A DNA stretch of 64,000 nucleotides from Patescibacteria group bacterium (GTDB lineage: Bacteria > Patescibacteriota > Saccharimonadia > CAILAD01 > BJGX01). The stretch lies in NCBI GenBank assembly GCA_026397045.1, contig JAPLVO010000008.1, positions 20,850 to 84,849 on the forward strand. The letters are read 5' to 3'. Positions 32,401 through 35,294 of the stretch are shown piece by piece. A program made the position numbers and the translations under genes. Within the stretch, counting starts at the first letter, position 1. Each line of letters starts with the position of its first letter. The notes under the pieces were generated by a model. That model searched no databases. It was not told the origin of the DNA and saw only the letters and a list, made by a program, of their open reading frames with translations.

Positions 32401-32475
32401 TGGGGCGTCGCCAAGTGGTAAGGCAACGGTTTTTGGTACCGTCATACGCAGGTTCGAACCCTGCCGCCCCAGCCA
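32401..32475 (+). tRNA. tRNA-Gln (anticodon UUG)
   Basis: Cloverleaf folded by hand: acceptor UGGGGCG/CGCCCCA with the U1-A72 pair typical of tRNA-Gln, anticodon loop UUUUGGU, T-arm GCAGG-TTCGAAC-CCTGC, 3' CCA encoded. Close match to E. coli tRNA-Gln. Confidence 0.9.
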
Positions 32476-32554
32476 TCCAAAGAGCCGGTACATTAGTGCC
32501 GGTTTTTTGGATAGTTTTGTGGGCAGGGTGAGAAGCCTATCCGCTTCTGGCGGA

Positions 32555-32589: not shown

Positions 32590-33723
32590 TTATTCTAGAT
32601 ACCCGCCTGTTCCTTTGTTTATTTTTGAATAAATCTGTTTATATATTATGTTTGCTTCAGAGTGAGTTAGTGACTTTTCTAAATGACGAAGCGTAATGCG
32701 TACAAGCACATTCTTTTGATTAGGGTTAATGCCTAAGCGACTTCTAGCCTTATCGGGCAATACTTCGTAGCTCGTTTCGCTTAAAATCTCTACACTCTCA
32801 AGGGAATCAAGTTTATTTCCAAGTGCATCGCGAATATCAGAGCTAATATCTTCTTCAACATAACCACTCGGTACACTATAAGATATATCTCGTACAATAG
32901 CGGGCTGATTTGATACCGCCCTGTAAGGTTCAAGATTACCCATTTGTTCAGCAATCTTAGGGTTGCTAGATCGTAGATAACGAACATCCGAAATGCCTTT
33001 AAGGGTCATAACCAAACGATCTAGGCCCATACCCAATGCCCAGCCAGAGTATTCACTTGGGTCAAGACCCGCATTTGTTAAGATTTTTTCTTTTATCAAT
33101 CCACATTCCAGGATCTCAATATCATGATCACTTTGTACCGCGTTTACTTCGATACCTTCGTTCGTATAAGGATGTGGTGAATCTACAATACGCAACTTCC
33201 AGCCTGGTGCAGCAGTTTTCGCCACGCCCTTTACGACGATAACTAGATCGTCCTTTACAATTGTTTTGCGGGCAGAGTTTTTTACAATTCTCCACATTTC
33301 AAGCATGTGGACTTCACTTACGTGTTTTTTATCAGACACATCACGCCTATAGGCTAATCCTGGTAGCAGTATAACGACATCATCCCAATCATCTCGCCTT
33401 GCAAGCTCTCTTAAGATACCTGGCAGGTGTGCACTGGTGTGGGTACGAAGTATATGTGAATTATCGACATAATGTGTGTAAGTTGAGGAACGGCTTATAT
33501 TGTCGCCAGAAATTAAGAGATTGTCGTAATTGTCTTCTACAGTGACCACAGGGTCTTTTCGATACACTAAAACTTCACTTTGCGGGTGACTTGAACGCAT
33601 ATACTGTTCGACTTTTTCATATACCATCTTAATAGCATGGGGTTTTTGTGACTGCGTAAGGTCACTAATTGCTAGGTATTTCTTAAGTGACTCCTGGCTG
33701 ATAGGCTCAATATACATTTTCAT
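32590..33723 (-). CDS. single-chain phenylalanyl-tRNA synthetase: PheS-type catalytic core + C-terminal FDX-ACB anticodon-binding domain (FARS2-like)
   Basis: LRTHTSA, motif 2 YRRDVSDKKHVSEVHMLEMW and motif 3 GWALGMGLDRLVM. C-terminal ~95 aa resemble the FDX-ACB domain of PheT. AAGGAG RBS 7 nt upstream of the ATG at 33723. Confidence 0.65.
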   Translation of the reverse strand: MKMYIEPISQESLKKYLAISDLTQSQKPHAIKMVYEKVEQYMRSSHPQSEVLVYRKDPVVTVEDNYDNLLISGDNISRSSTYTHYVDNSHILRTHTSAHLPGILRELARRDDWDDVVILLPGLAYRRDVSDKKHVSEVHMLEMWRIVKNSARKTIVKDDLVIVVKGVAKTAAPGWKLRIVDSPHPYTNEGIEVNAVQSDHDIEILECGLIKEKILTNAGLDPSEYSGWALGMGLDRLVMTLKGISDVRYLRSSNPKIAEQMGNLEPYRAVSNQPAIVRDISYSVPSGYVEEDISSDIRDALGNKLDSLESVEILSETSYEVLPDKARSRLGINPNQKNVLVRITLRHLEKSLTHSEANIIYKQIYSKINKGTGGYLE

Positions 33724-33758
33724 TTTAATACTCCTTATTATTATTTTAGTTGTTCGAG

Positions 33759-33789
33759 GCAAAATAAAAAACCTGCCTCGAGGGCAGGT
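33759..33789 (-). terminator. intrinsic terminator / attenuator hairpin immediately upstream of the PheRS RBS
   Basis: AACCTGCC-TCGAG-GGCAGGTT followed on the minus strand by TTTTTATTTT. Lies 35 nt before the PheRS start codon. Confidence 0.55.
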
Positions 33790-33812
33790 TCCAAATTATG
33801 GCAATGGGGACT

Positions 33813-33872
33813 CTATCCTCGAAACGGGTTGAGAATAAAGTTAAAAAATAAGTTGTGCGAGCACGTTTTCAT
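33813..33872 (-). CDS. candidate Phe-rich leader peptide MKTCSHNLFFNFILNPFRG (19 aa)
   Basis: Read directly: ATG at 33872, 4 Phe codons clustered as FFNF plus F, stop 23 nt before the terminator hairpin. Confidence 0.3.
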   Translation of the reverse strand: MKTCSHNLFFNFILNPFRG

Positions 33873-34019
33873 GAGGCCTACAATATCATAAATAAATATG
33901 GATTACAAGCCTTTTACGCTTATTGATATATGCTTTGGTGTATAATTAAAGCAGTTCTAACCTGGGTTACAATGCTTAGCCACCTTTAAAACAATCGACA
34001 ATAGTCGGTTTTTTTGTAT

Positions 34020-35294
34020 TTATAAATACTTATTTAGGCTATTCACATACTTAATAATACTTGCATTGCCAGATCTATTAGCGTACATCTGCATGTTGCC
34101 AATAATTTTGCGATTAGCCTTTATGTCTTCTGCAGTATCAAGCTTACCTAGTTTTTTCTGTTCTTGCGAAAACAAACCTGCGTAACATTTTTTAACTGCA
34201 TCATGCTCACCAATCTCCCCAAAAGCTTTTAGCGCAGTATAATAGTCCCCTTTAGAGAAATAATATGCACCCTTGTTGTGATATATAGAATTATTAAGTT
34301 TAGCCCGATCAAGGGAATACTGGGCGAAGTTGAGGGCTTTTTTGTATTCGTTTCCTCGCATAAAATAAATTGCACCATTGTGGCCAGCCATATGAATAAG
34401 CTTAGGCTCATCGCTTTGTTTGGCGTACTTTAGGGCCTTAGCGTAGCTAGAACTGCCACAAAAATCTACCACGACATTATTATAGGCAGCTGCCAGGTTC
34501 TTTTCGACAATGTCGCGCTGACTACTGAGTATGTAGGCAATACGGGCAGACTCTAGCAGTGACTCGGCAGAAACATCGTGGGTCTTAAAATATTGGTCGC
34601 TAACATCAAGTAGATTTATACTTACAATCTCTTCGATAGGTAATAAATTCTGGTTAGGCTTTTTGTAGTTAGCGAAAGTTCCACTGGTGGCCTCAATATC
34701 AGCGCCCTTAAAATGCAGTGCGACATGACCCGGATAAGTCTTTATTTCTAGGTCCTTAATATCATGTCTTAGCGAATAAAGGTGTATATATAATGTAACA
34801 ATTTGGTTGCAATCACCCTCCAGCATATTTTTGCCCGGATCCTTCAAGAGTTCTCCAAAAGTACAAGATTTGCGGTATTTGTAGCGCCCAGCATGCGGGG
34901 ACAAGTATGACATTATACTGCGCAGGTATTGCAGCTGCTCAGCATGCTCGGAGAGATTTTTGCTATCTATGCCAGCTGCACTAATCTCGGCCAAGACTTG
35001 ATCTACAGAATGTTTGTTTTTAGACAAATAAATCTCAAAGCTGCTGGCAATGGCCAGAGAGTTATTATAGAGCTCGCGCCTTTTTGCTTTTTTTAGGTAT
35101 TTATAGCCGCGGTATTTGAATTCACTCCAAAGATTAATACCTATAATGTTGTTTTGCAAGAACCAGTCTAGATCTTTCCTGATATCATCTTTAGTTTGGT
35201 GCTCATCTAGCTTGGCAAAAAACTTAGCCACCCTGCGCTCGCTAGGGTCAGTGTTATTACTAAATAAATAAAATATTTTTTGAAAAATGTTCAT
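34020..35294 (-). CDS. hypothetical protein with TPR/Sel1-like repeats
   Basis: C-terminal half shows an A/Y/G-rich helical-repeat pattern. No catalytic motif. Confidence 0.35.
   Translation of the reverse strand: MNIFQKIFYLFSNNTDPSERRVAKFFAKLDEHQTKDDIRKDLDWFLQNNIIGINLWSEFKYRGYKYLKKAKRRELYNNSLAIASSFEIYLSKNKHSVDQVLAEISAAGIDSKNLSEHAEQLQYLRSIMSYLSPHAGRYKYRKSCTFGELLKDPGKNMLEGDCNQIVTLYIHLYSLRHDIKDLEIKTYPGHVALHFKGADIEATSGTFANYKKPNQNLLPIEEIVSINLLDVSDQYFKTHDVSAESLLESARIAYILSSQRDIVEKNLAAAYNNVVVDFCGSSSYAKALKYAKQSDEPKLIHMAGHNGAIYFMRGNEYKKALNFAQYSLDRAKLNNSIYHNKGAYYFSKGDYYTALKAFGEIGEHDAVKKCYAGLFSQEQKKLGKLDTAEDIKANRKIIGNMQMYANRSGNASIIKYVNSLNKYL

Follow-up and report, generated by a model that had tools for sequence, protein, structure and literature searches.

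A candidate leaderless phenylalanine leader-peptide attenuator upstream of srmL, a PheS-related ligase gene of Saccharibacteria

The window analysed here, a 64,000-nucleotide stretch of Patescibacteria DNA (contig JAPLVO010000008.1), carries on its minus strand the gene srmL, encoding a relative of the phenylalanyl-tRNA synthetase (PheRS) chain PheS. Between srmL and the next gene upstream lies a short open reading frame (ORF) rich in Phe codons, followed by a GC-rich hairpin, a U-run and the srmL Shine-Dalgarno (SD) sequence (Table 1). Each of the parts listed in the original prediction, the 19-codon leader ORF with its four Phe codons and FF-N-F cluster, the hairpin, the T-run, the AAGGAG motif and the ATG, is present, on the minus strand. 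All four Phe codons are TTT (codons 9, 10, 12 and 17), the stop codon is 22 nt from the hairpin, or 20 nt if two G-U pairs are included in it, and the terminator scan counts 10 pairs in this hairpin, five of them G-C. The arrangement is the single intergenic instance of a codon-run short ORF with a terminator within the 64-kb window, and the promoter scan detects no promoter in the 44 nt between terminator and srmL. From sequence conservation and modelled folding we are fairly confident that the element attenuates srmL transcription by way of a leader peptide and its ribosome, in response to charged tRNA-Phe.

Table 1. Features of the srmL locus, given as positions in the window.
Feature	Positions	Strand	Remarks
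srmL	32590-33723	minus	377 aa; PheS-type class II core and FDX-ACB anticodon-binding domain (Pfam PF01409, PF03147)
srmL Shine-Dalgarno AAGGAG	33731-33736	minus	invariant among relatives
Terminator U-run TTTTATTTT	33761-33769	minus	
Terminator stem-loop AACCTGCC-CTCGA-GGCAGGTT	33770-33790	minus	8 bp, GC-rich, terminator-scan match
Antiterminator 3' strand	33770-33798	minus	includes the entire terminator stem-loop
Antiterminator 5' strand AACC.GTTTCGAGG.TAG..TCC..ATTG	33802-33830	minus	predicted to pair with 33798-33770
GUUUCGAGG	33820-33825	minus	predicted to pair with the terminator loop
Segment 2 GAGGATAGAGT, protector hairpin 3' strand	33810-33820	minus	holds the stop codon, overlaps the antiterminator 5' strand
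Segment 1 ACTTTATTCTC, protector hairpin 5' strand	33831-33841	minus	predicted to pair with segment 2
Regulatory codons TTT TTT AAC TTT	33837-33848	minus	Phe9, Phe10, Asn11, Phe12
Leader ORF, peptide MKTCSHNLFFNFILNPFRG	33813-33872	minus	19 codons and TAG; ATG 33872, TAG 33815-33813
Extended -10 box TGaTATTGT	33880-33888	minus	hexamer 33885-33880; 7 nt before the leader ATG
-35 box TTGTAA of the leader promoter	33903-33908	minus	17-nt spacer to the -10 box
Upstream gene	34020-35294	minus	424 aa, co-directional with leader and srmL

The predicted control depends on a choice between two RNA folds. With positions numbered from the A of the leader ATG, segments 1 and 2 form an 11-bp protector hairpin (nt 32-42 with 53-63, -11.1 kcal/mol), the terminator alone (nt 83-103) has -12.8 kcal/mol, and the extended antiterminator helix (nt 43-71 with 75-103) has -23.5 kcal/mol. 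Protector and terminator sum to -23.9 kcal/mol, a value almost equal to that of the antiterminator, and the predicted switch is therefore bistable. The ribosome was represented by a footprint kept free of pairing, from -12 to +15 relative to the P site. Placing its A site at any of codons 8-13 (L F F N F I) flips the minimum-energy fold from terminator to antiterminator; with the A site at any other codon, or at the stop codon, the terminator stays. Without a ribosome the terminator has a mean pair probability of 0.94. An A site at Phe codon 9 or 10 brings this to 0.00 and one at Phe codon 12 to 0.07; with the A site at codon 17 it is 0.96, and at the stop codon 0.97. This footprint-dependent switching holds across five footprint sizes and is reproduced by one in 1000 dinucleotide shuffles of leader nt 1-82. 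All five leaders of the window's design (type C, below) have the same antitermination window, codons 8-13. Folding of the alternative structures, suggested with the original prediction as a check, lends it support: the terminator and antiterminator states are near-isoenergetic and depend on ribosome position. The pairing of TTTCGAGG with CCTCGA, earlier put forward as a possible antiterminator, is real over its 6 bp but is merely the core of the longer helix 43-71/75-103, and CCTCGA, which had been taken for the 5' arm of the terminator, is actually the last base of that arm plus the loop. A 'co-transcriptional' test, which scored 5'-arm pairing on transcripts that stop short of the 3' arm, was noisy and uninformative.

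Conservation of these structures was assessed in an alignment of six closely related type C sequences, with the consensus peptide MKTCS(H/Q)NLFF(N/S)FILN(P/L)(F/S/P)RG, the relatives' SrmL being 84-98% identical to that of the window. The codons for Phe9, Phe10 and Phe12 are invariant in all six, and codon 17 is Ser or Pro in the relatives. Given this substitution, and given that a modelled stall at codon 17 favours termination, the fourth Phe codon is, in our model, outside the sensor; the four Phe codons first noted are thus all there, but just three of them, codons 9, 10 and 12, are conserved and codon 17 lies outside the regulatory window. Throughout the alignment, pairing is complete (100%) in both the protector hairpin and the terminator. 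In the antiterminator it reaches 97% of cells, against at most 56% in slid controls; six of the changes there are one-sided and one is compensatory. Among close relatives (84-87%) the upstream gene is a different one and divergent, and promoter, leader, terminator and srmL stay together. Directly past the U-run, UUUGCCUCGA (33754-33763, minus strand) is complementary to the terminator loop and 3' arm (UCGAGGCAGG), and this pairing dominates the fold of the long transcript. It is present in the window and in the related loci L001, L051 and L052, and is probably not essential, because it is not kept in L046 or L049.

A wider family of such leaders precedes srmL. We fetched 120 loci with srmL relatives (the L numbers used here) and searched the 300-nt upstream regions for an ATG-initiated ORF, 12-45 codons long, whose peptide includes FF and has three or more Phe in all. 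A Phe-rich short ORF of this kind is found in 56 of 82 non-identical upstream regions, and conservation of the peptide, proposed earlier as a check, is seen within type C and, for the Phe cluster, across the family. The same test scores 6 when run on the reverse strand, 1 of 55 in control stretches 1 kb upstream, and 5.0±2.0 in dinucleotide shuffles, which never exceed 10, although the sequences counted are related and the shuffle statistics overstate their independence. Leader and terminator together make up 60 non-identical units, which fall into five designs by sequence; the srmL orthologues behind them share 48-98% identity with that of the window. Design A (32 units), with peptides ending ...FFFFGFFAA, has its stop codon within the terminator loop. 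Design B (14 units) encodes MKAIS..NFFMTSSLGGLAGFTK and then the stop codon, and design C, that of the window (five units and one C-like), encodes MKTCS(H/Q)NLFF(N/S)FILN..RG before its stop codon and accompanies SrmL proteins at least 84% identical; all three lie directly upstream of srmL. Design D (five units) ends ...FFF(A/G/D).F(I/M)(Q/P)A..PR.. and often has a small ORF between leader and srmL. A small ORF likewise separates srmL from design E (three units), which ends ...SFMQPRSDSRLV.

The peptides are unrelated between designs except for the Phe cluster. What the five designs have in common is an ATG 6-7 nt past a -10 box, an open frame, a cluster of Phe codons, and a stop codon beside or inside the terminator. 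At 13.8%, Phe outnumbers every other residue of the leader peptides, and 50 of the 58 distinct ones include FF. No leader, or a degenerate one, is found at L023, L067, L073, L090, L099, L117/L120, L075 and L113. The srmL copies of L117 (1-1500) and L120 (1-251), 81% identical to that of the window, stand directly behind a GC-rich gene without a leader, the design A leader of L075 has lost its in-loop stop codon, and the leader of L113 has a premature stop codon; such natural variants would be of use in testing the need for a leader. The interposed ORF of designs D and E, 60-110 aa long, lies between the attenuator terminator and srmL, abutting or overlapping the srmL start, and matches no Pfam family. 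It is of two kinds, one ending ...SLD(E/D).VPR.W..W (L020:2757-2999, L042:2766-2999, L032:2736-2993, L034:2807-2998, L025:588-881, L040:2654-2992) and the other with ...AETAI.LGR...P(V/I)DEAA (L018:132-386, L027:2743-2979, L029:2181-2423).

The family also indicates where the transcript would begin and whether the leader ORF would be read. In 52 of the 60 units a TAnnnT box lies upstream of the leader ATG, its end 6 or 7 nt away, and in most cases it has a TGn extension and is accompanied by a TTG -35 box. A generic promoter scan leaves the window's leader promoter under threshold (8/12 positions match), and conservation was used instead: type C relatives retain a -35 box of TTGTAA or TTGCAT, and the TGn extension of the -10 box is likewise retained among relatives. 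A -10 box at 6-7 nt from the ATG would place the transcript start at or next to its A, with no room for an SD sequence, and the leader ORFs, if translated, would be leaderless. Leaderless short ORFs acting as amino-acid-responsive attenuators have been described in mycobacteria (bioRxiv 10.1101/834739). The codon usage is informative on translation: within their pyrimidine tracts the ORFs have 9 C residues at the first codon position, 43 at the second and 89 at the third, where tracts outside ORFs have 49, 44 and 42. Such a third-position bias points to selection for TTY codons rather than for U-rich RNA, and argues for translation of the leader ORF.

Our model of the window element is as follows. 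Transcription would begin on the A of the ATG or on an adjacent nucleotide, 7 nt past the extended -10 box, and the 19-codon ORF would be translated leaderless. With no ribosome present, segment 1 would pair with segment 2, and with a ribosome at codon 17 or the stop codon segment 2 would be covered; in both situations the terminator hairpin and U-run would form and transcription would end 44 nt before srmL. When Phe-tRNA-Phe is scarce the ribosome would instead stall with its A site at Phe codon 9, 10 or 12, covering segment 1, and segment 2 with its flanks would then pair with the terminator loop and both arms in the extended antiterminator, allowing readthrough and synthesis of SrmL. The layout of pheM/pheA-type attenuation seen in the original prediction is in this respect supported, by the conserved units, the footprint-dependent folding switch and the conserved alternative pairings.

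The model also draws support from a sister design. The leaders of design B have their FF codons 2 nt ahead of segment 1 (GACCUC), and their segment 2 (GGGGGU) has two possible partners, segment 1 and the terminator 5' arm (GCCCCC). Columns 54, 108 and 120, in segment 2, the 5' arm and the 3' arm respectively, change together from G/C/G to A/U/A in 4 of 14 sequences, a three-way covariation that is the signature of segment 2 pairing with the 5' arm as an alternative to the terminator stem, and further compensatory pairs are found in the hairpin of segments 1 and 2. Design B is, as judged by covariation and not by energy, a classical four-segment attenuator architecture. The design A terminator is 99% paired with 11 compensatory cells, and its stop codon lies inside the loop (UUGCUGC-CUAA-GCAGCAA; e.g. 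L003:2824-3003, L118:1326-1503). Some 40 nt past the design A terminator is a conserved CCAAAG, with which the Phe run (CUUUGG) is paired in 81% of cells, without covariation; in the minimum-energy fold of the full-length RNA the Phe run pairs with the srmL SD in about 60% of loci. Design A may on this modelling add or substitute a translational layer, or have a different regulatory geometry. For a large hairpin considered in design A, hand-placed columns were out of register (32% and 49% paired) and no claim is made.

The gene downstream had been called PheRS in the original prediction, which holds in that its product is a PheS-family chain and does not hold in that it is not canonical PheS. 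SrmL scores 411.5 bits against NCBIfam NF051887, 'PheS-related mystery ligase SrmL' (cut-off 300), with residues 20-371 aligned to profile positions 2-349. It does not reach the cut-off of canonical pheS TIGR00468 (86.2 bits, cut-off 237.45) or that of pheS_mito TIGR00469 (162, cut-off 258). The closest solved structure is human mitochondrial PheRS, matched over both domains (E = 1e-28). On these comparisons the window gene is a single-chain PheS homologue of mitochondrial-type architecture, SrmL, and not canonical pheS. Throughout the family the arginines of motifs 2 and 3 are kept, and an invariant His-Pro-Tyr-Thr (SrmL residues 184-187) replaces the Phe-Pro-Phe-Thr/Val that stacks on the phenyl ring in bacterial and mitochondrial PheRS. 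Human cytosolic PheRS has Asn and Tyr at the FPF positions (PMC3275996), and Phe specificity of SrmL is for this reason possible despite its His-Pro-Tyr. Neither pheT, nor canonical pheS, nor a second PheS-like ORF is present in the window or in 591 kb of related loci, a sample too small to decide coexistence. SrmL homologues come almost entirely from metagenome-assembled genomes of Candidatus Saccharibacteria/Saccharimonadales, with a few labelled Dojkabacteria or other Patescibacteria, which places the window in a bacterium of the Candidate Phyla Radiation.

Several points weigh against an attenuator that senses charged tRNA-Phe. An ORF like that of the window (FF and at least three Phe) arises alone in 343 of 5000 dinucleotide shuffles (7%) of the 258-nt spacer and is not in itself significant, and the support from type C comes from six close sequences with one compensatory pair. 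Equilibrium folding of designs B and D keeps the very GC-rich terminator at any footprint position; as the footprint scans do not flip these terminators, the model for both designs rests on covariation and geometry. In design A a ribosome at the first three Phe codons leaves the terminator untouched and only the last seven positions mask it, so the logic of this design could differ from that of the window's. The amino-acid pocket of SrmL has an invariant HPY and not the FPF of the phenyl-ring site, which makes phenylalanine no more than a candidate substrate. Transcript start, termination and response to Phe are all inferred, as are leaderless translation and transcription-translation coupling in Saccharibacteria.

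These points have to be set against what other explanations would require. Were the ORF incidental and untranslated, the element could be an RNA-only switch, i.e. a riboswitch, a T-box-like tRNA binder or a protein-bound leader. The leader ATG indeed has no preceding SD sequence, alternative structures exist and are conserved, and design A has an additional conserved hairpin within the ORF. Such a switch is nevertheless hard to reconcile with five unrelated designs that share only an ATG near the -10 box, an open frame, a Phe cluster and a stop codon at the terminator, or with the concentration of pyrimidine-tract C at the third codon position. Nor does the leader, of about 100 nt, have a conserved core resembling a ligand pocket, and no Rfam family, T-box included, matches the window even at E <= 10, nor does any relevant one reach its gathering score across 12 related loci. 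We regard an RNA-only switch as very unlikely. Still less probable, and in our judgement highly improbable, is a constitutive terminator that ends either a small-peptide gene or the 424-aa upstream gene, with srmL transcribed independently. The upstream gene, which the original prediction had as convergent, is co-directional, and the hairpin is excluded as its constitutive terminator since the 84-87% relatives have a different, divergent gene in its place. A hydrophobic peptide with its own function could be encoded by the small ORF, and the hairpin is by itself a good intrinsic terminator, but apart from the Phe cluster the peptide is wholly different between designs, the antiterminator is conserved, switching is rare in shuffles, and designs A-C leave only 25-66 nt, including the SD sequence, before srmL, too little for a promoter of its own, and none is detected there.

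The element could also depend on the ribosome but follow another logic or signal, such as translation capacity, stalling by drugs, or translation of the Phe codons promoting readthrough or freeing the srmL ribosome-binding site. It is design A that lends itself to this explanation, through the stop codon in its terminator loop, the seven final ribosome positions that alone mask the terminator, and the pairing of its Phe run with the downstream CCAAAG and, in many loci, with the srmL SD. In the window the geometry is unambiguous, a stall at the Phe codons giving the antiterminator and completed translation the terminator, the SD sequence is not consistently paired with the Phe run, and Phe is the only residue whose clustering all designs share. 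We consider a different logic or signal unlikely, and favour the attenuator sensing charged tRNA-Phe.

Beyond the leader, the gene neighbourhood varies. Downstream of srmL in the window, ORFs for a DEAD-box RNA helicase and a PolB-exonuclease-like protein (PF10108; 30159-32190, minus strand) overlap by 119 nt as listed. The same pair follows srmL in L049, an 84% relative, and YaaA is upstream in both L049 and the window. The other close relatives have different neighbours, which suggests that the promoter-leader-srmL unit moves as a cassette. A YbaK-type tRNA_edit gene divergently adjoins the leader-srmL unit in an 87% relative (L046:1747-2226, minus strand) and is notable in that SrmL is a PheRS-like enzyme without an editing domain; the linkage is not general, as the equally long L049 neighbour is unrelated. 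Between srmL and the helicase gene, and convergent with the srmL 3' end, lies a tRNA-Gln (anticodon TTG) followed by a 17-bp hairpin and T-run (32401-32512, plus strand), a hairpin that could terminate transcription in both directions. A further terminator-like hairpin and T-run (33993-34010, plus strand) lies beside the stop codon of the minus-strand 424-aa gene with no plus-strand gene leading in, and the same palindrome read on the minus strand is a weaker terminator for that gene. SAM riboswitch (RF00162) matches occur at L033:4160-4268 (62 bits), directly past the srmL stop codon, and at L020:1546-1653 (49 bits), about 1.4 kb upstream of srmL.

Published classical attenuators include those preceding pheST in gamma-proteobacteria and, in Streptomyces, those preceding trpS and leuS (PMC1262725). 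The window element resembles the E. coli leaders pheM (pheST) and pheL (pheA) in its short ORF with clustered Phe codons, in its protector hairpin, antiterminator and intrinsic terminator, and in its position directly upstream of a PheRS-family gene with readthrough predicted upon Phe stalling. It differs from them in having no SD sequence and a putative start at the transcript 5' end, in its three regulatory Phe codons as opposed to five to seven, and in its target, a single-chain SrmL in a host of the Candidate Phyla Radiation (CPR) rather than an alpha2beta2 pheS-pheT operon. The Rfam Phe_leader model gives no match at E <= 10 (cmscan, 33000-34600), and the window element is an analogue, not a homologue. 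A weak match to the Rfam 'P9 sRNA' (25 bits, cut-off 43) is just the terminator. The Streptomyces trpS and leuS attenuators, also found by comparative genomics, are a further case of synthetase-gene attenuation outside proteobacteria, but differ in amino acid, phylum and sequence and are not described as leaderless (PMC1262725). Closer in their 5' end are the mycobacterial polycysteine short ORFs, in which an ORF at the start of the transcript senses an amino acid through a run of its codon (bioRxiv 10.1101/834739); these sense Cys and differ in targets and phylum, whereas the window element has an explicit terminator/antiterminator pair and is predicted to sense Phe. The pheS T-boxes of Firmicutes do the same job, uncharged tRNA-Phe raising synthetase expression by antitermination, but bind the tRNA directly without translation, and no T-box model matches the window element. 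The searchable literature holds nothing specific on SrmL, on monomeric bacterial PheRS, or on attenuation or leaderless mRNAs in CPR, which is no proof of novelty.

The Phe-rich leaders before srmL would link this family to a charged tRNA-Phe signal, which argues for a role of SrmL in phenylalanine charging. We tentatively propose, as a possibility that may well need revision, that SrmL is an auxiliary single-chain PheRS, or another Phe-tRNA-Phe-dependent CPR ligase, induced when tRNA-Phe charging falls, and that its control is by a fast-evolving family of leaderless attenuators of at least five architectures, one of which has its stop codon in the terminator loop and a Phe run pairing downstream or with the SD sequence. 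Saccharibacteria are episymbiotic and amino-acid-auxotrophic, and to our knowledge almost no gene regulation has been described in them. The element would be a readily testable regulatory element in these bacteria and would imply that leaderless translation and transcription-translation coupling operate there. If our reading is true it would, as far as literature searches show, be the first described ribosome-mediated attenuation in the CPR, and would provide a regulatory handle for assigning the function of SrmL. Five unrelated leader designs before one gene family would also make a compact case of attenuators being rebuilt in evolution.

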